Below, one piece after another: positions 1 through 58,120 of a stretch of 64,000 bases of DNA. Below the pieces are notes generated by a model. It did no database searches and had not been told where the DNA came from. It saw only the letters and a list, made by a program, of their open reading frames with translations. The stretch comes from Escherichia coli (GTDB lineage: Bacteria; Pseudomonadota; Gammaproteobacteria; Enterobacterales; Enterobacteriaceae). The position numbers were made by a program, and so were the translations under genes. The first letter of the stretch is position 1. Each line of letters opens with the position of its first letter. The stretch lies in NCBI RefSeq assembly GCF_003018235.1, contig NZ_CP027437.1; one strand, given 5' to 3'.

Positions 1-1733
1 GGTTATATTAAATATTCCGTCACTGGTCATTTGCAGGATAGTGTTCCCACAACTAAGAATTATGGAATCTCCCGCAGCAAGGCGTAAATTCTGTACGGCC
101 TGAATCGTTTTATTTTGTCCGGCAAGGGAGGTATCATCCATCTGAACTGTAAGAGAACGTTCCTCACCAATTATCGCTGTTTCTGTTTTATCAATGACTT
201 TAAGGCGATTATTGCCCACCCAGTGGCTTTCATTATTATTTACTTCAATCCGCTGATCTTTTTCGGCATGTAGCCAGACCTCTTCACCGCCAGGTTTATC
301 CTCAAAACGTAGTGCGTTGGCATTGGTTGGGCCGCCGCCGATAGTGTGACTGTAAAATCCGCTTTGCGTCGCTGCGCCCGGTAGTCCCCACGGTGGCATG
401 GTGTCCTGGTTGTAGGTACGCCCAACAATTATCGGTAAATCCGGATCACCGTTTTTGAAATCCACCAGTACTTCCTGACCAATGCGCGGGATCTGAATGC
501 CACCGAATCCTTTACCCGCCCACGGATAACTGACACGGACCCAGCAGGAACTATTTTCGTCATTCTTACCGTAACGATCCCAGCCAAACTGAACTTTCAC
601 CCGGCCATATTTATCTGTCCAGATTTCCTGCCCTGCCGGGCCGGTGACGATGGCGCTCTGCGGGCCTTTAGTGTGGGGTTTGCTCAGGGTTCGTTGTGGG
701 CGGTAAACTTCGCTGGTGGGATGCAGTTCAAAGCTGGTTGAGTAAGAGAAATGCTGCTCCTGGCCGCTGTGTTGCGCATTGTCCTGTATAAATAGCGTGG
801 TCTGTACCAGCAGATATTCCCGGTTCACTTCGGCTGTCGGATAGTTTTCCAGGATGAAGGTAAAACCTGTCATCAGGGTACGAATATTGCCGCTGCCCTG
901 TACCCGACTACCTGGGCTACGCTGTTCTTCCATGCGAATGCGTGTCAGCATTTCACCTTCACTCTTTGTGAAGTAATCTCCCGGCCATTCGTAGTGCTCA
1001 TATTCAGCAAGGCCGGTTTCACGCGGATTAGCCACGGTGCTCTTCAGCAGTGAACGCGGCTTCATAAAGTCGAAATCATTCAGCACCCACTGTCCACTGC
1101 GCAGACTTTCATTTGCTGTGATGGTATGGATAAACTCCTTGTCCAGTTTCAGCCCTTTCTGGTAATAACACACCAGCGGCGAATCTGCGCATGCCTTGTG
1201 GACATTAATGGCATCAGCCAGCACTAACGTGTGACTGTTCTCGCTGTGCTCAAACCACCAGTAGATACCCCACTCCTGCATCAGGCGCTGAACAAAATCG
1301 AAATCTGTTTCACCGTACTGCACCTGCCAGGCGCGAGTCGGATAATTTTCCACCAGTCGTTTTTCCACTGGCCAGGGGTACTCATCCAGTACCTCATCCA
1401 GGATCTCCACCACGTTTTTATTCTGAAACGCTTTGTAGTCACTAGTGTGGGTCAGTATTTTTAACCACGGTTCGAGCCGCAGTTCATACACCACCGAACG
1501 TCCTTGATGACCAGCCACGCGTGCCGCCGTCACCAGCCCGCTGATATAACGTTTTCCGCCGCCATCCAATTCGATATTGACGCACAGATCTTTGCCCACC
1601 ATCGGTTTGAGCTGCAGGTTGGCTGCGGGGGAAACATAGCCCAGGTTCAGGATGTCAGGAGTTTTTAATTTAATAGAATAAGTAAATAGTTCCCCTACTG
1701 TTTCTGTACCCCCTAAGCTTGCAAACAGTAACA
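1..1733 (-). pseudogene. vgrG: vgrG (T6SS spike protein), portion downstream of the IS3 insertion; continues beyond the window start
   Basis: Minus-strand frame is open from 1733 to position 1. Translation carries gp27-like motif [32 protein letters not shown] and the conserved [26 protein letters not shown] block. The apparent ATG at 1732-1734 is created by the IS3 terminus. Confidence 0.8.
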
Positions 1734-1763
1734 TGATCCTACCCACGTAATGTGGACACGGCC

Positions 1764-2618
1764 CTAAGCGAGATTATGGTTTTCAAATTGTTCCGGGCTG
1801 AGACCGCCACAGGCACTGTGACGACGCCAGCGATTGTAATCACTCTCGATATAATTAAACACCGTTGCCCGCATTATTTCCCGGCTGCTAAAGCGTTCCC
1901 CGTGGATACATTCCACCTTCAGCGAATGAAAGAAGCTTTCCACACAGGCATTGTCATAACAGTAGCCTTTCGCACTCATACTGCCACGCAGGTTGTGTCG
2001 CTTCAGCATTGCCTGATAATCCCCTGAACAGTATTGACCACCACGGTCCGTATGAACAATGACGTTTTCCGGGCGTCTTCTCCGCCACAACGCCATTTGC
2101 AGTGCATCACAGGCCAGTTGTGCTGTCATTCGCGGTGACATCGACCAGCCAATGACGGCGCGTGACCACAGGTCGATGACTACTGCGAGATACAACCAGC
2201 CCTCATCGGTACGCAAGTACGTGATGTCACCCGCCCACTTCTGGTTCGGGCCACTGGCGCTGAAGTCCTGCTCCAGCAGATTCTCCAATACGGGCAGGCC
2301 ATGTGCACGGTAGCTGACCGGGCTGAACTTCCGGCTGGCTTTCGCCCGCAGCCCCTGACGACGCAGGCTGGCGGCAATGGTTTTAATATTGAACTCCGGC
2401 AGTTCGTCAGCAAGGCGGGGAGCACCGTATCGCTGCTTTGCCTCAAAGAATGCCTTATGGACAGCGGCATCGCAGGTGAGCCGAAACTGTTGGCGCAGGC
2501 TCATCTGGTGACGACGCCTGAGCCAGACATACCAGCCGCTGCGGGCAACCCGAAGTACACGACACATCGCTTTGATGCTGAACTCTGCCCGATGATTTTC
2601 GATGAAGACATACTTCAT
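1764..2618 (-). CDS. insF: IS3 transposase OrfB (integrase/DDE catalytic part)
   Basis: 284-aa [25 protein letters not shown]... typical IS3 OrfB; overlaps orfA as expected for frameshift-fused OrfAB. Confidence 0.9.
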
Positions 2619-2914
2619 TTCAGGCGCTTCGCGAAGTATGTCGCGGCCTTTTGGAGGATGGCCAGTTCCTCAGCCTGCTCCGCCAGTTGTCGTTTAAGGC
2701 GGACATTTTCAGCGGCCAGTTCGCTTTCGCGCTCTGACGAACTCATTTGTTGCTGCTGTTTACTGCGCCAGGCATAAAGCTGAGATTCATACAGGCTGAG
2801 TTCACGGGCTGCGGCGGCCACACCGATGCGTTCAGCGAGTTTCAGGGCTTCGTTACGAAATTCAGGCGTATGTTGTTTACGGGGCTTCTTGCTGATTGAT
2901 ACTGGTTTTGTCAT
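2615..2914 (-). CDS. insE: IS3 transposase OrfA (HTH DNA-binding part)
   Basis: 99-aa [34 protein letters not shown]... matches IS3 OrfA. Confidence 0.9.
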
Positions 2915-2977
2915 GAGTCACCTCTGGTTGAGAGTTTACTCACTTAGTCCTGTGTCCACTATTGGTGGGTAAGATCA

Positions 2978-3074
2978 ACATTCCATCAGGAACTGCGCTG
3001 CCGCTCAAAGTCACGTTATGTGTACCCGATCCAGTTAGTGCGCCGGATGGATAATCTGTAGCTGCAAAACTCAT
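2978..3074 (-). pseudogene. vgrG: vgrG 5' fragment (codons 1-32) separated from the rest by IS3
   Basis: ATG at 3072-3074 (reverse strand) with AGGA Shine-Dalgarno; MSFAATDYPSGALTGSGTHNVTLSGSAVPDGM. Removing IS3 and one ACA copy joins it in frame to [16 protein letters not shown]... at 1731. Confidence 0.7.
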
Positions 3075-3295
3075 AATTAATCCTTTTAACTAGAAATGGA
3101 TAAGTGCTAATAAGAAATCTTACAGAGAATAAAATATGCAATATATTCGTAGCTGGCATAAAACATCTCAATACTTATGCGTGCTACTGAAGATACTATC
3201 AACCATATATGCCTTGAAGAATGCACCGTCATGTTAACCTGGTGGAAACATTCACCTAAAGTACATTAATAAAACTAATAAAATTATTTAATTTG

Positions 3296-3652
3296 TTATT
3301 TGATATGATTATCATCAAGTCTTAAAATACGTTCTCCGGTTCTAATTATGTTAAAACCATAGTATTCTTTTTTACTTTCGGAAGAGAGCATATATTTCCC
3401 GATATACATAACATCTGAAGATAGCTCACTTATATCAATACATACGGGTTCGAACTGACCTGTCACTCTTTTCAACTTTATTGCATTGCCATATTTACCT
3501 TCATATAAAACATAATTTGAAATAATATTCCCATCGTCTGGTTTTGAACAAATCTGTCCGTCTTGCAAATATACACTACCGGGTAACAATGGGCGAACAT
3601 AATCACCAACAGTGCATCCCGACAAAAAGAAAAACAAAAAGAATCTCTTCAT
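3296..3652 (-). CDS. small lipoprotein of unknown function (candidate immunity/inhibitor partner)
   Basis: 118-aa ORF with signal peptide and lipobox MKRFFLFFFLSGC; start codon overlaps stop of upstream gene (ATGA, 3649-3652); AT-rich codon usage. Confidence 0.6.
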   Translation of the reverse strand: MKRFFLFFFLSGCTVGDYVRPLLPGSVYLQDGQICSKPDDGNIISNYVLYEGKYGNAIKLKRVTGQFEPVCIDISELSSDVMYIGKYMLSSESKKEYYGFNIIRTGERILRLDDNHIK

Positions 3653-4179
3653 ATGACACCCGCAGGAAATAAATTAAGCACCTTTTTGTATTTTTCCGAT
3701 AGAGTGTTCACTGATTCAGTTGTATCACCTACATAGTTAACATTTGCCAAATCAGCCACCAGTCCATAGTTAATTAATAGCCAATAATCAGCAACTATAG
3801 ATGCTTGTTGTTCCATGGAATAAGAAGAAATTGACTGTAAATTAAGATCGTAATGATAATTTGCCGCCCAAGAAAATAAACCACGCAACTTAACTGCATA
3901 CCCTTTCTGATATTGCCAAACATGCATCATTTCATGAATAAACAAGTGAGAAGCACCTGCTACTGTTTCACGATCACCAGGCATTGCTTGCGATGAATAA
4001 TCTGAACTATAAACAGCATCAGGATAATACATTTCCCCGTTTGGGGTCATCGCTGTTCTTTCCCCTTGACCAGGCAAATATTTTTCATTGTGGATCCATA
4101 CCTTGCTATAATCAATTGTATTCTCAAAAATCGATCTGGCCAATGTTAATTCACCAGATGTCATTCTCCTTAATGACAT
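3649..4179 (-). CDS. zincin-like metallopeptidase-domain protein with HExxHxxQ motif (DUF4157-like)
   Basis: HEMMHVWQ encoded at 3922-3936. N-terminal LARSIFENTIDYSKVWIH...AMTPNG pattern resembles DUF4157. ATG at 4177-4179 is preceded by AGGGGA; six-frame track extends to a GTG at 4218. Confidence 0.55.
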   Translation of the reverse strand: MSLRRMTSGELTLARSIFENTIDYSKVWIHNEKYLPGQGERTAMTPNGEMYYPDAVYSSDYSSQAMPGDRETVAGASHLFIHEMMHVWQYQKGYAVKLRGLFSWAANYHYDLNLQSISSYSMEQQASIVADYWLLINYGLVADLANVNYVGDTTESVNTLSEKYKKVLNLFPAGVI

Positions 4180-5116
4180 ATCCTTTCCCCTGGAAATAAT
4201 ATCTTTCAGATAAAACACAAACGCCCTTTGATGTTCAATATTCCCACTTTATACAGTATTGATGACATCATATTCATAGAAAATAAAATCAAAGCAAGTT
4301 ATCAACGTTTCCCGTTATGATTTCTTAACATTAATTCTCAGCATTTTTATTAATCTATCTTCAATATCAATAACCGATGCAAATGATTACGCAGCTAACA
4401 TAATTCTCATCAATTGATTAATGTCTGTAAACGCTACCGCCCCACCCTGATATCTTAATCTGCACATAGCAATCTTAACGTTATGCCCCATACATTAGTA
4501 ATGTAAATTAAGAATTCGGAATATATCAAATTCACTTCATAAATTAATATCGGGAATGATATACACATTAATTATAATGAAGTAATGTTTTAAGAGTTGT
4601 AATGACCATGGAACAGGATTAATTCCAGAAGCTCCTGTTGGGCAATAGCGCGTTTATCATCCTACATGCCTCTTACATTTTTTAGCCTTTTCTTTAACGT
4701 CAGCAATTGGCTCATTTAATCAGCAATTGTATTGGTATTTGGCGTATTACCCCTGAAACCCGTCATGTGCTAGCACCTCACTATTCAATGAGCCAACCAC
4801 GCCAGTGTCCACTGCAACCACTGGCGTTCAGAGCGACGAACGAGTGGCGCAAGAGTAAGACTGCCGTCGGGCATCATCAAACCAATAGTGGTTGTTTCCG
4901 TCAAAATTTCATCAGGTTGCTATTTTGTTGCCGGCCGCCTTTATCCCCACATATTTATAGCGGGATTATTTTGCATCGTTACACGATAAAAGGTAGGATT
5001 CTGCGCCGACAGTTATACCCATAAAGAATAATGGTGAATCTTGTCATCGCCAGGATGAATAAACATTGTTCATGGCAACTTATATGACTTTTTCATTAAA
5101 GCAATCAGGGAGAGCA

Positions 5117-14055: not shown

Positions 14056-14399
14056 CAAGATCATCTCATACTCTCCAGGTTTACAACATTATCCTTAATA
14101 TTTACTTCTTTTTGCTGACATCTACATTGAAATAAGTAGAAAACATCCCCCTACTGCCGTCTATACAGACAGCTTACTGATTCAAAGGGAACCTTGTTTT
14201 CACATTTTGCTATCATCAATACTTTAGACGCGCGGGAGTCTATAAATGCTTTATACTTTCAGGGAATAAAGTAAATATAAAAAGATGGCGTAAATTATAT
14301 GCATGGCAGGATGATTGCGACCTCCTTGATGACGCTGTCCCATTGAAATTGCAAACCCCGCACTGGTTATCTTGCCCATTTATCATGCAGAACAGACAA

Positions 14400-15209
14400 T
14401 TATAGGTCTCTGAATATCTCAGAAAGATTGAATTTTTTATAGTCCATCTCTTGAATATTTCCATTTGATATCAATCGATTCATCTCTTCAACAAAATAAT
14501 TTATATCATCACATTTGTTATTATCCGGAAGATATGAGTAATTATAATTCCACCACTTTATTCTCAACAATTCATCAATAACATTTGAATCAAATCTAAA
14601 TCTGATTATTTTTGCAGGAACTCCAGCAACTATGGCATATGGGGGCACATCTTTGGTAACAACAGAATTGGCAGCAATAACAGCACCATCACCTATTGCG
14701 ATGCCACCTTTCAATACAACATCATTTCCTATCCAGACATCATTTCCTATAATCGGATTTTCAGGTTTGGTAATGAATGGTTTCAATGTCCAGCTACGTT
14801 CAAACTCACTCTTAGCAAACTTATCAAATTCACCGTTATAAGTCATCATGTGAGTAGTAAAACGATTCAAAGGATGATTTCCACCCATTATTTTTACATT
14901 TGATGCAATACTACAAAATCGACCTATATGTATATTCCCTGTAAAATGACAGGTCGGGAATGAAAAAGCGCCGACACTGGAGAAATTTTTTACAGGCATT
15001 GTTGAATATTCTTCAGCAATAACATTATCTTCAATTGTTATCTTGTCACCTTTTGAGAAAAGAAATAAATTCCTTTCTTTATACGACTTCTTCCCCTTAT
15101 GATTTAAAAAGATTTTATTATCCATACAAAACTCAAAGTGTTTTTTCGTCCACCTGAAGGTAAGGGTTTTATTTTTATCTTCCGTGAATTTATACAATTG
15201 AACTTTCAT
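14400..15209 (-). CDS. xenobiotic acetyltransferase (XAT) family hexapeptide-repeat acetyltransferase, Vat/CatB-like
   Basis: 269-aa ORF with IGRFCSIA...MGGNH and IGNDVWIGNDVVLKGGIAIGDGAVIAANSVVTKDVPPYAIVAGVPAKIIRFRFDSNVIDELLRIKWWNY, closely resembling streptogramin A acetyltransferases; AT-rich gene. Confidence 0.7.
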   Translation of the reverse strand: MKVQLYKFTEDKNKTLTFRWTKKHFEFCMDNKIFLNHKGKKSYKERNLFLFSKGDKITIEDNVIAEEYSTMPVKNFSSVGAFSFPTCHFTGNIHIGRFCSIASNVKIMGGNHPLNRFTTHMMTYNGEFDKFAKSEFERSWTLKPFITKPENPIIGNDVWIGNDVVLKGGIAIGDGAVIAANSVVTKDVPPYAIVAGVPAKIIRFRFDSNVIDELLRIKWWNYNYSYLPDNNKCDDINYFVEEMNRLISNGNIQEMDYKKFNLSEIFRDL

Positions 15210-15431
15210 TGTTATTACTTCTACTTATAAATTATTAGGTTAATAACGATACTCTAAAGCCTTATGCGAATCAACTATGACAGGATGAAAAATCACCAAC
15301 ATACATTTAGATCATAATAACTGCCTAATTTTTCCGCTAGTTATTAATGTAATCATTCTGATACTTAATCACCATTACACTCAGAACCTAAAACGATAGT
15401 GGCCGCCCTATAACAGCCACTAACATTTAAC

Positions 15432-25725: not shown

Positions 25726-26262
25726 TTAACTGCGCGGGTAATGGATGAGGGAATGAAAATGTACGGTTTGCTCCCCTCCATTACGATAGACATGCGTGAC
25801 GTCTGCAGCAAATCGAGCGCCTTCCCCACAATTAAGGCTCTGCCATTCACCATCAACGCACAGATCAAGTTGTCCATCAATGACGACAACATGTTCGATT
25901 ACCCCCTTCTCATGGGGCGTCGATTCGCTTATTGCACCAGGTGCCATCTGAATCGAGAAGTGTTCAAAGCAGAGTTGTGGATCATAAGGAAACAGCGAAG
26001 TGATCACCATCGCCTGCTGTTGCGGCTCATAAACTGAAGGCGTAGCGGACTGCGGCGGAGAAATAAATGTCGAAAATGGCACGTTCAACCCGGTGGCTAT
26101 TTTCCATAATGTCGCGACCGTCGGGCTGGACTCATTACGCTCAATCTGCCCTAACATCGCTTTAGAAACGCCCGTCGCTTCTGCCAGTCGCGAAAGACTC
26201 CAGCCGCGCTGCTGACGTAGTTGTTTAAGTGTGGTGGATAAAAAGCGAGCGAGATTTTCCAT
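25726..26262 (-). CDS. sutR: XRE-HTH/cupin transcriptional regulator SutR (YdcN)
   Basis: 178-aa ORF MENLARFLSTTLKQLRQQRGWSLSRLAEATGVSKAMLGQIERNESSPT... Confidence 0.85.
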   Translation of the reverse strand: MENLARFLSTTLKQLRQQRGWSLSRLAEATGVSKAMLGQIERNESSPTVATLWKIATGLNVPFSTFISPPQSATPSVYEPQQQAMVITSLFPYDPQLCFEHFSIQMAPGAISESTPHEKGVIEHVVVIDGQLDLCVDGEWQSLNCGEGARFAADVTHVYRNGGEQTVHFHSLIHYPRS

Positions 26263-26353: not shown

Positions 26354-27526
26354 ATGCGTCTGTTTTCTATTCCTCCGCCCACGCTACTTGCGGGGTTTCT
26401 GGCGGTATTAATTGGCTACGCCAGTTCAGCGGCAATAATCTGGCAAGCAGCGATTGTCGCCGGAGCCACCACTGCACAAATCTCTGGCTGGATGACAGCG
26501 CTGGGGCTGGCAATGGGCGTCAGTACGCTGGCTCTGACATTATGGTATCGCGTACCTGTTCTCACCGCATGGTCAACGCCTGGCGCGGCTTTGTTGGTCA
26601 CCGGATTACAGGGACTAACACTTAACGGAGCCATCGGCGTTTTTATTGTCACCAACGCGTTAATAGTCCTCTGCGGCATAACGGGACTCTTTGCTCGTCT
26701 GATGCGCATTATTCCGCACTCGCTTGCGGCGGCAATGCTTGCAGGGATTTTATTACGCTTTGGTTTACAGGCGTTTGCCAGTCTGGACGGTCAATTTACG
26801 TTGTGTGGCAGTATGTTGCTGGTATGGCTGGCAACCAAGGCCGTTGCGCCGCGCTATGCGGTAATTGCCGCGATGATTATTGGGGTCGTGATCGTTATCG
26901 CGCAAGGTGACGTTGTCACAACTGATGTTGTCTTTAAACCCGTTCTCCCCACTTATATTAGCCCTGATTTTTCGTTTGCTCACAGCCTGAGCGTTGCACT
27001 CCCCCTTTTTTTGGTGACGATGGCATCGCAAAACGCACCGGGTATCGCAGCAATGAAAGCAGCCGGATATTCAGCTCCTGTTTCGCCATTAATTGTATTT
27101 ACTGGATTGCTGGCACTGGTTTTTTCCCCTTTCGGCGTTTATTCCGTCGGTATTGCGGCAATCACCGCGGCTATTTGCCAAAGCCCGGAAGCGCATCCGG
27201 ATAAAGATCAACGTTGGCTGGCCGCTGCCGTTGCAGGCATTTTCTATTTGCTCGCAGGTCTGTTTGGTAGTGCCATTACCGGGATGATGTCTGCCCTGCC
27301 CGTAAGTTGGATCCAGATGCTGGCAGGTCTGGCGCTGTTGAGTACCATTGGCGGCAGTTTGTATCAGGCGCTGCATAATGAGCGTGAGCGCGACGCGGCG
27401 GTGGTGGCATTTCTGGTAACGGCAAGTGGATTGACGCTGGTCGGGATTGGTTCTGCGTTTTGGGGATTAATTGCCGGAGGCGTTTGTTACGTGGTGTTGA
27501 ATTTAATCGCTGACAGAAACCGATGA
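26354..27526 (+). CDS. ydcO: BenE-family membrane transporter YdcO
   Basis: 390 aa from ATG 26354 (MRLFSIPPPTLLAGFLAVLIGYASSAAII...) with GAGGTG Shine-Dalgarno. Confidence 0.85.
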   Translation: MRLFSIPPPTLLAGFLAVLIGYASSAAIIWQAAIVAGATTAQISGWMTALGLAMGVSTLALTLWYRVPVLTAWSTPGAALLVTGLQGLTLNGAIGVFIVTNALIVLCGITGLFARLMRIIPHSLAAAMLAGILLRFGLQAFASLDGQFTLCGSMLLVWLATKAVAPRYAVIAAMIIGVVIVIAQGDVVTTDVVFKPVLPTYISPDFSFAHSLSVALPLFLVTMASQNAPGIAAMKAAGYSAPVSPLIVFTGLLALVFSPFGVYSVGIAAITAAICQSPEAHPDKDQRWLAAAVAGIFYLLAGLFGSAITGMMSALPVSWIQMLAGLALLSTIGGSLYQALHNERERDAAVVAFLVTASGLTLVGIGSAFWGLIAGGVCYVVLNLIADRNR

Positions 27527-27534
27527 TTAAAAAA

Positions 27535-27554
27535 GCGCCATCTAACGATGGCGC
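27535..27554. terminator. bidirectional terminator between ydcO and ydcL
   Basis: GCGCCATC-TAAC-GATGGCGC flanked by A-run and T-run. Confidence 0.65.
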
Positions 27555-27562
27555 GACTGGGA

Positions 27563-28231
27563 TTACTTTTTGTTAACGTCAAACATGGTGGCATCGGTCG
27601 CCATGTCATCAATAACTTGTTTAATATTTTCGAAAGCCATTGGCGTACTTTCGTTATTCAGGTCTTTCCCTTCGCCCTGACGAACGACTTTGATAACCGG
27701 TTTATTAGTCGCTGCATCAATCAGCTCACCTTCAAAATAGAGGCGAGTATCCATGGTACGGTGGCCTGTAGCCATTTGCGTCCCCGCAACCACTAATGCA
27801 ACAGGAACCACTTCATAGAATTGCAGCCCTTCTTTGCTGGTATCTACACCGGTAATGGCCCCACGGAAAATCAGACTACGCGGCCCAGCGGTGGTAACCA
27901 GTGGTTTACGCTGCGCTATCGCTTCTTTCATTTCGGTGTTGGTATAGTTCAAAATTTTATCCAGAACTTTCTGCCCTACCTGGGTAGAAGGTTTTGGCAC
28001 CGGATAATAAGTGATTGGGTTCCAGACGATGCTGTCATATTTGCTTTGATCAAAACTCGGGTCTACCCAACGTAAAACAGGTTTACCTGTTGCTGAGGTT
28101 GTTTCTTTTAAATCAGAGTAATTGTTTAAAAAACCAGAATATTTATCTGGCTGGGTGATTTTAGAGGCACAACCAGACAGAGCCAACAAGCCGCATAAAG
28201 CTGCAACTTTCGCAAATGATGTGGTACGCAT
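27563..28231 (-). CDS. ydcL: lipoprotein YdcL
   Basis: 222-aa ORF with lipobox MRTTSFAKVAALCGLLALSGC. Confidence 0.85.
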   Translation of the reverse strand: MRTTSFAKVAALCGLLALSGCASKITQPDKYSGFLNNYSDLKETTSATGKPVLRWVDPSFDQSKYDSIVWNPITYYPVPKPSTQVGQKVLDKILNYTNTEMKEAIAQRKPLVTTAGPRSLIFRGAITGVDTSKEGLQFYEVVPVALVVAGTQMATGHRTMDTRLYFEGELIDAATNKPVIKVVRQGEGKDLNNESTPMAFENIKQVIDDMATDATMFDVNKK

Positions 28232-56647: not shown

Positions 56648-56690
56648 TAGGTATCACATGCTAAAAATTAGAACGTCCAGCATCAGGACG

Positions 56691-57281
56691 TTACTGTTTC
56701 GGTCGCAGATTCTCATCAAATACCAGGCGCTGCCTGCCAGGTTCAACTTCCCGCAATGGCTCGACTTGATGTAACGTCTGCTTACAGCGTGTCACCAGCA
56801 CCTGGTACTCATGCGTACCCTGCTTTTTCCATGCCAACTCCTGCTCACTGAGTTCACGAATCGCTTTCGCCGGGCTGCCGACAATCAGGTAATTAGCTGG
56901 CATTTCTGCTTTGGCTTTCACAAATGCGGAAGCGCCAACAATGCTGTTCTCGCCAATCACCGCACCGTCTATCACTACCGCGTTCATTCCCACTAATGCA
57001 TTGCGGCGGATAATGCAGCCGTGAAGGATAGCGCTATGACCAATATGTCCATCTTCTTCCACGACAGTATCCTGCTCGGGAAAACCGTGCATAACGCAAT
57101 TATCCTGAATGTTCGCGCCATCTTTCACCATGATACGACCAAAATCGCCACGCAGGCTGGCATTTGGCCCAACGTAAACGCCCTTGCCGAGAATAACATC
57201 GCCGATCAATACCGCTGTCGGATGGACAAAACTCTCTTCTGGCACAACCGGAGTCAGACCGTCTATCTGATAAATTGGCAT
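56691..57281 (-). CDS. paaY: hexapeptide-repeat thioesterase PaaY
   Basis: 196-aa [32 protein letters not shown]... with AGGAGG Shine-Dalgarno. Confidence 0.85.
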
Positions 57282-57400
57282 AACGCCTCCTGTTCAATAT
57301 TCAAGCCGCCAAAACGTTGAAAATACAGGCTTCCCAGCGCAGGCAATTCACCGACCGAGGTTTCACCTTTTTCACTAACGAACGCTAAAGCAGCAGGCGC
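57263..57400 (-). pseudogene. paaX: probable 3' remnant of paaX (upper boundary approximate)
   Basis: Minus-strand frame ending 19 nt inside the paaY start (...[23 protein letters not shown]), i.e. the position a paaX 3' end would occupy; no room upstream for a full-length gene. Identity not verified. Confidence 0.35.
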
Positions 57401-57622
57401 TACGCGCTGATAAAGTTTGCCGATAAAGGTTTGGTAGTCGCGCAATATATTCGTAACCGTCGTCTCGATTTTTGTGCAGATGCGATTCGCCATGCCGCAG
57501 ATGATGAAAAACTGGCAGGCATTGGCTTTCATTGGGGATTTTCCGACCAGAGTCATTTTTCAACGGTATTTAAGCAACGCTTTGGGATGACGCCAGGTGA
57601 GTATCGTCGTAAATTCCGCTAA
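57389..57622 (+). pseudogene. feaR: 3' remnant of an AraC-family regulator gene, probably feaR
   Basis: Plus-strand frame without an in-frame ATG encodes an AraC-type C-terminal HTH ...GFSDQSHFSTVFKQRFGMTPGEYRRKFR*; adjacent to ydbL, where feaR lies in K-12. Confidence 0.45.
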
Positions 57623-57660
57623 CTAATTAGCGTTGCATGTACAGCAACGCTAATTAGTTA
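57620..57660. terminator. 41-bp near-perfect palindrome (likely bidirectional terminator)
   Basis: TAACTAATTAGCGTTGC-ATGTACA-GCAACGCTAATTAGTTA immediately after the feaR-like stop. Confidence 0.6.
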
Positions 57661-57793
57661 AAACAGATATTTGACTATGCATTTTTCAGGGCGAAAGGCA
57701 ATTTGACAGGAATTTTTGAATATTCACCTTGTTTCCGGAAAATAGAATAATCGCCTTCTCCTGTAGCGTTATCCCGATATTGCGGTTTTGCTA

Positions 57794-58120
57794 TTAAAAT
57801 TTTCGCACCCATTTACCGTTTATCCCTTGTACATATTCCCCCGGTTTAGCCCGAGCTACGAGCTTTTGCCCGGCGAGTTTCGCGATATCATCTACCGACA
57901 CATTATTTTGCTTTGCCAGTTGTTGGTAACTCGCTTTACGTTCGGCATTAATGTCGTTTACTAATTTCTCTGTTTCAGCATCTGTTTTCAGCGCAACCAG
58001 ATAACCATAAAATGTTTCCCCTACCCGCCCCTGAGTTCTGGCTTCATCCAGAGTCAATGCCATTACATTGCTGCTTACAAGCCCAACAAGAAACGCACAA
58101 AGAAGTACTGTTTTCTTCAT
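57794..58120 (-). CDS. ydbL: YdbL (DUF1318) periplasmic protein
   Basis: 108 aa from ATG at 58120 (MKKTVLLCAFLVGLVSSNVMA...). Confidence 0.85.
   Translation of the reverse strand: MKKTVLLCAFLVGLVSSNVMALTLDEARTQGRVGETFYGYLVALKTDAETEKLVNDINAERKASYQQLAKQNNVSVDDIAKLAGQKLVARAKPGEYVQGINGKWVRKF

Follow-up and report, generated by a model that had tools for sequence, protein, structure and literature searches.

IS608 and ISDra2, two elements of the IS200/IS605 family, have the targets TTAC and TTGAT, respectively. For a third, ISGst2, TTTAT is the wild-type TAM of its TnpB2; changing a single base of the TAM abolishes the action of TnpA as well as cleavage by TnpB, and excision of IS200/IS605 elements leaves a scarless donor joint (PMC10055086). 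The commonest cleavage motifs among IS605 elements are TTAT and TCAA (PMC9956272). IS609, a member of the same family, moves as single-stranded DNA and inserts 3' of its target without duplicating it. In E. coli K-12 MG1655, IS609 is annotated at 1503161-1504908 (1,748 bp), between ydcL (b1431) and ydcO (b1433), and carries yncK, a tnpA pseudogene, and insQ (b1432). InsQ is a TnpB-type protein with OrfB_IS605 and Cas12f1-like TNB domains. A literature search found no paper on IS609 target choice or InsQ activity, only surveys and statements that the K-12 copy is inactive (PMC2891674; PMC5009759). In the IS609 copies examined here at the ydcO-ydcL junction (K-12 and M9), tnpA was pseudogenised; an O157:H7 copy of IS609 encodes an intact TnpA (WP_000604943.1). 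The K-12 annotation already includes the insertion, and strains routinely differ in whether they carry it.

The 64-kb stretch of E. coli DNA analysed here (the window) carries the same two genes. From the open reading frame list, ydcO occupies 26354-27526 on the plus strand, encodes a 390-aa BenE-family transporter (Pfam BenE, E 4e-160; NCBIfam benE, 697 bits) and ends in a TGA stop codon at 27524-27526. The mechanical frame runs further upstream, to a GTG at 26231; PGAP annotated the same 390-aa frame in two homologous loci (L006 and L007). ydcL occupies 27563-28231 on the minus strand, ends in TAA (27563-27565) and encodes a 222-aa DUF3313 lipoprotein (Pfam DUF3313, E 4e-63). Gene names are those in the RefSeq annotation of the homologous loci. 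The intergenic spacer, 27527-27562, measures 36 bp from stop codon to stop codon, holds no mobile-element sequence and reads on the plus strand TT, AAAAAA, GCGCCATC, TAAC, GATGGCGC and GACTGGGA. In the open reading frame list no frame of at least 60 aa lies inside the spacer; the only frames touching it are the end of ydcL itself and an 82-aa frame at 27548-27796, antisense to ydcL.

No similarity to K-12 IS609 was detected by blastn in the whole 64-kb window, and neither the left nor the right end of the element was found in a window search allowing up to 3 mismatches. At the gathering threshold, an Rfam search of the whole window returned nothing at the ydcO-ydcL junction. An earlier note on this DNA had claimed that ydcO and ydcL abut with no mobile element between them, across a 36-bp terminator-containing spacer, and had placed insQ at this position in K-12. 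All three points held: the stops lie 36 bp apart with no IS609 similarity, the spacer contains a hairpin and a T6 tract on the ydcL strand, and the K-12 annotation has IS609 with insQ sitting precisely between the two genes. We also examined whether K-12 has an uninterrupted junction as well; it does not, as MG1655 is interrupted by IS609.

The terminator scan placed the hairpin of ydcL at 27535-27554 on the minus strand, with an 8-bp stem (GCGCCATC/GATGGCGC) and a 4-nt loop. Read on the minus strand it is GCGCCATC-GTTA-GATGGCGC followed by TTTTTT: the T6 tract (27529-27534; A6 on the plus strand) lies directly 3' of the hairpin and would form the terminator U-tract. Six of the 8 stem pairs are GC, and the hairpin begins 8 nt beyond the TAA stop of ydcL. 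The fold energy was -16.2 kcal/mol (z = -4.3), and 0 of 200 shuffled sequences folded as well.

To examine conservation, YdcL was used to scan one genome per species, yielding 80 Enterobacteriaceae loci, which do not include the E. coli species representative or E. fergusonii. A GC hairpin followed by a T-run was found 3' of ydcL in nearly all 80 loci, even where ydcO lay 2 kb away. Covariation was assessed in 28 orthologous sequences with the same 8-bp/4-nt geometry, selected by a pattern that let each side of the stem vary independently. All 8 core pairs were paired in 28/28 sequences, with compensatory changes at three of the 8 and no one-sided changes. G-C had become A-U in 8 sequences, A-U had become G-C in 3, E. 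albertii among them, and U-A had become C-G in 1. The stem covariation score was 0.198 compared to 0.101 in shuffles, none of 500 shuffles reached 0.198, and slid controls paired in 18-56% of cells and all scored lower. On this comparative evidence the spacer element is a predicted, conserved rho-independent (intrinsic) terminator of ydcL, and ydcL transcripts would be expected to end there in vivo. With its GC-rich 8-bp stem, tetraloop, U6 and compensatory conservation it shows nothing unusual for its class; what sets it apart is that two genes physically share it, the ydcO stop codon ending just 2 nt before the complement of the U-tract. The plus strand has no U-tract adjoining the stem: GACTGGGATTAC comes first, a T5 run is 12 nt away, and the terminator scan of the junction reported a site on the minus strand only. 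A role as ydcO terminator is therefore unsupported by the sequence, although the hairpin probably also caps ydcO transcripts, without a proper U-tract in that direction.

The MG1655 locus has the same flanking genes, convergent orientation and ydcL terminator hairpin as the window. YdcL is 100% identical between the two and the flanks are ~98.2% identical. The loci differ in that K-12 carries the 1,748-bp IS609 between ydcO and the T-tract, whereas the window is IS-free and carries another spacer allele. In window orientation the K-12 sequence runs ...AACCGATA, then the element (TTGACATCC...IS609...GCGCACCGG), then ATAAAAAGCGCC. The common IS-free allele, found in strain 2A, O157:H7 F8797 and NY1601, reads AACCGATAATAAAAAGCGCC. 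At the joint itself K-12 has CCGATA, IS609 and ATAAAAAGCGCC, and the standard empty allele has CCGATAATAAAAAGCGCC. Joining the K-12 flanks exactly yields the standard empty allele, so the insertion was precise, without duplication and 3' of TTAT. IS609 adds one codon (Tyr) to K-12 ydcO and supplies the new stop codon from its right end; YdcO ends in ADRNR in the window and in ADRNRY in K-12.

The placement of IS609 was consistent across the genomic sites examined. Its left end (CCGGTGCGCC...) abutted TTAT at 5/5 independent sites (6 copies), and TTTAT preceded it at four of these five. The right end always closed with ...GGATGTCAA (TCAA) in the same 6 copies, behind a strong subterminal hairpin. 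In sitting 3' of TTAT without duplication, IS609 is like IS608, ISGst2 and ISDra2 at their targets. At the right end of the K-12 element (L001 6803-6919), the last ~100 nt of insQ and the terminal sequence weakly matched HgcC (22 bits) and folded into two strong hairpins (z -3.1). Rfam matches on K-12 IS609 were sub-threshold only (HgcC scored 22 bits where the cut-off is 50, and RAGATH-18 scored 25 where it is 45), and none of the known guide-RNA families could be assigned. This segment may be the InsQ guide-RNA scaffold, in which case its guide would run antisense to the 3' end of ydcO.

Other differences from K-12 were observed elsewhere in the window. A 1.3-kb low-GC (29-40%) segment at 14105-15430, between the patD and yncL positions, is absent from K-12. 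Inside it, 14400-15209 on the minus strand encodes a 269-aa hexapeptide-repeat acetyltransferase, with only sub-threshold similarity to Vat/CatB xenobiotic acetyltransferases (126 bits, cut-off 300). Across 56676-57417 and 57418-64000, ydbA, which is split by IS2D and IS30C in K-12, is absent. All that is left ahead of ydbL, ydbH, ldhA and hslJ is paaY with the end of paaX, indicating that the fea/tynA/paa cluster is missing in this strain. Positions 1-4961 have no counterpart in the compared K-12 interval (1462000-1540000); they include an IS3-family transposase frame (1764-2618, minus strand, 323 bits) and a 189-aa frame (3649-4218, minus strand) that has an HExxH-like motif and no NCBIfam family match. 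The only Rfam hits in the whole window at the gathering threshold were sok (38472-38623, at the hokB/sokB locus) and the small RNA RydC (39173-39236), both expected for the region.

To assess junction states across the species, junction-spanning 54-mers were compared with 5,426 complete E. coli genomes. The IS609 junction was present in 3,264 (~60%), with 3,254 matching at 100% identity over the 54-mer. The standard empty junction was present in 1,999 (37%), and 114 (2%) carried IS200C within the same few bases. The exact spacer allele of the window was found in 0/5,426: only strain Nord8 approached its 54-mer, at 94%, through the A6 run that it has as well. An exact-protein look-up of YdcL was uninformative because empty and occupied genomes alike carry this YdcL allele.

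In E. coli CFSAN018748 (L006 7520-8245) the IS200C copy, ~0.7 kb, lies between the ydcO stop and the ydcL terminator, at a site homologous to window 27524-27534. IS200C and IS609 have both inserted within the same few bases, so this AT-rich stretch is a target that two IS200/IS605-family elements share. In the common allele, the stretch from the ydcO stop to the hairpin provides a TTAT site on the ydcL-sense strand; IS200C took these few bases in its ~2% of genomes. In O157:H7 F8797 (L004 1-800) ydcO is annotated as a frameshifted pseudogene, and the junction is still IS-free.

The standard IS-free junction (for example in O157:H7 and strains 2A and NY1601) is, like that of the window, convergent and has the same hairpin stem and loop. 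The two differ in detail: the standard junction has a 34-bp spacer, TAA as ydcO stop, a T5 tract, two TTAT motifs, GTCTGGAACTA to the right of the hairpin and TAG as ydcL stop, whereas the window has 36 bp, TGA, T6, no TTAT, GACTGGGATTA and TAA.

The earlier note had further proposed that the uninterrupted junction is ancestral. Representatives of three further Escherichia species-level lineages (L029, L030 and L031) are IS-free, with a spacer of 34 bp. From 4,096 flanking columns of 24 loci, with the spacer left out, we built a neighbour-joining tree. In this small sample, a local tree of ~4 kb in a recombining species, the seven IS609-occupied loci (7/7) formed one clade and the empty loci were paraphyletic. 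The window grouped with empty and IS200C loci, outside the occupied clade, and its nearest relatives (L024 and L007) carried the standard allele. The single occupied clade, the near-identical IS609 junctions and the empty outgroups together support one insertion at an empty ancestral site, inherited since. IS609 would have entered the TTAT site once and then passed to the K-12-containing clade, now ~60% of complete genomes. Relative to the element, the IS-free state is thus ancestral as proposed. IS609 did not, however, insert into the spacer version that the window carries: this version departs from the standard allele at 6 positions and has no TTAT.

One locus weakens the one-insertion account. 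Escherichia sp. MOD1-EC7003 (L028 3669-3992) retains a remnant of IS609, 46 bp long, at this site and immediately behind TTAT, suggesting either that the site was struck more than once or that occupancy is older than E. coli. The remnant consists of the start of the left end fused to the end of the right end, and the first ~29 bp of the ydcO flank are deleted. Both MOD1-EC7003 and E. albertii NBRC 107761 (L032) are without sutR and almost all of ydcO, and ydcL adjoins rlhA.

In most other Enterobacteriaceae genera (Klebsiella, Citrobacter, Enterobacter, Kluyvera and others), ydcL and ydcO are separated by two genes, encoding an EamA-family transporter and a regulator of the AraC family. The gap measures ~2 kb in K. 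pneumoniae ATCC 13883 (L085 3716-5662) and ~60 other loci (among L033-L107), with the AraC-family gene divergent. The pair is absent from Escherichia, two Salmonella subspecies, Atlantibacter, Citrobacter sp. R56, Citrobacter sp. Awk 4 and 'Enterobacter pulveris'. The intervening gene pair in most genera indicates that the abutment of ydcO and ydcL is specific to Escherichia and a few other lineages.

Compared to its best complete-genome matches, the window showed ~1% divergence over 15 kb, with six differences concentrated in 27525-27563. At the left, the ydcO stop has changed from TAA to TGA, and an extra T and an extra A are present (TGATTAAAAAA in the window, TAATAAAAA in the standard allele); the T-tract is T6, against T5 in the standard allele. 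Three variant bases lie right of the hairpin, at 27556-27563: 27556 is A instead of T, 27561 is G instead of A, and 27563 is T instead of C, which turns the standard E. coli ydcL stop TAG into TAA. The A at 27556 and the T at 27563 are common to E. albertii, MOD1-EC7003 and the three other Escherichia lineages (L029, L030 and L031); at these two positions, judged against the outgroups, the derived base is that of the common E. coli allele. The left motif of the window, GATTAAA, also resembles E. albertii.

The window lineage was located by exact YdcO protein look-up. Among the matches listed, three assemblies (L023, L025 and L027) carried an identical 36-bp spacer and a fourth (L026) had one difference. 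These four derive from separate sequencing runs and match the window at 99.9-99.97% identity; beyond the matches listed there were ~15 more contigs like them. The window spacer is a rare but real allele.

In the junction comparison, the position homologous to the insertion point of IS609 (K-12) and IS200C is 27524-27530. Here the window has TGATTAA and the standard allele TAATA, which is TTAT on the minus strand. TTAT was absent from both strands of 27515-27575 in the window, whereas the standard allele has two overlapping copies on the ydcL strand. When tested as a vacant site, the standard allele (L003, L004 and L007) was identical to the joined K-12 flanks and the window was off by one substitution and two single-base insertions. 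In contrast to IS200/IS605 target sites, the window lacks the motif at the homologous position and so is not strictly a vacant target site. Given the absence of TTAT and the sensitivity of the TAM to single-base changes (PMC10055086), the site is predicted to resist both IS609 and an InsQ guide RNA that reads out of the K-12 right end into ydcO. The window allele is probably neither an IS609 target nor a usable TnpB TAM.

Our main reading, to which we give a probability of roughly 0.85, is that ydcO-ydcL in the window is a plain convergent-gene junction, a spacer with the ydcL terminator that has never been occupied by IS609 in its present form. The origin of the divergent ~40-bp patch is a separate matter. 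Rather than being a retained ancestral allele, it could be a short import, brought in by recombination from a deep-branching Escherichia or from a donor outside E. coli, a possibility that we hold tentatively. The density of differences (six in ~40 bp against roughly 1% in the flanks), the outgroup-like bases at 27556 and 27563 and in the left motif, and the standard allele of the nearest relatives by flanks are all as an import would leave them. However, the stem and TAAC loop are of E. coli type, while the sampled outgroups have a TTAC loop or, in E. albertii, a GCGCCGTC stem, and the coding flanks within 100-200 bp show no extra differences. With an E. coli-type hairpin and unremarkable flanks, no sampled donor fits.

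Selection on the target itself was also considered. The rare spacer would then be an escape or immune allele, selected or preserved as the loss of TTAT bars insertion of IS609 and IS200C and cutting by InsQ. A guide RNA reading from a K-12-type IS609 into the ydcO 3' end would perfectly match the standard empty allele. We regard this as improbable.

Former occupancy is slightly less probable still. IS609 may once have been present in the window lineage and then have been excised, and precise excision would make the empty site alone look never-occupied: scarless donor joints are the rule for the IS200/IS605 family (PMC10055086), the standard empty allele is exactly the joined K-12 flanks, and the remnant in a cryptic Escherichia lineage points to old or repeated occupancy of this site. 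The window allele is nevertheless not such a donor joint, as it lacks TTAT and has three differences at the insertion point, with three more beyond the hairpin, two of them outgroup-like. The position of the window outside the occupied clade also argues against excision, as do the pseudogenised tnpA in the junction copies examined and the reported inactivity of the K-12 copy (PMC2891674; PMC5009759). A scar of imprecise excision was considered and rejected, because half of the differences are on the far side of the hairpin, where they match the outgroups. A sequencing or assembly error in the window, which the absence of the allele from the complete genomes and the A6 versus A5 homopolymer might suggest, is refuted by the four separate sequencing runs and can be given almost no weight.

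The significance of the IS-free junction is small, and the sole mildly new detail is the rare, TTAT-less and partly outgroup-like spacer allele. If the escape reading were true, this allele would show, in nature, a host site evolving against a transposon that is RNA-guided and self-retaining. More practically, the junction is usable as a clean three-state lineage marker in E. coli (IS609 in 60%, empty in 37% and IS200C in 2%). The standard empty allele together with K-12 IS609 offers a natural TAM-plus-target substrate for asking whether the InsQ/TnpB of E. coli itself works as an active homing nuclease, and the TTAT-less allele of the window is a ready-made negative control for that question.
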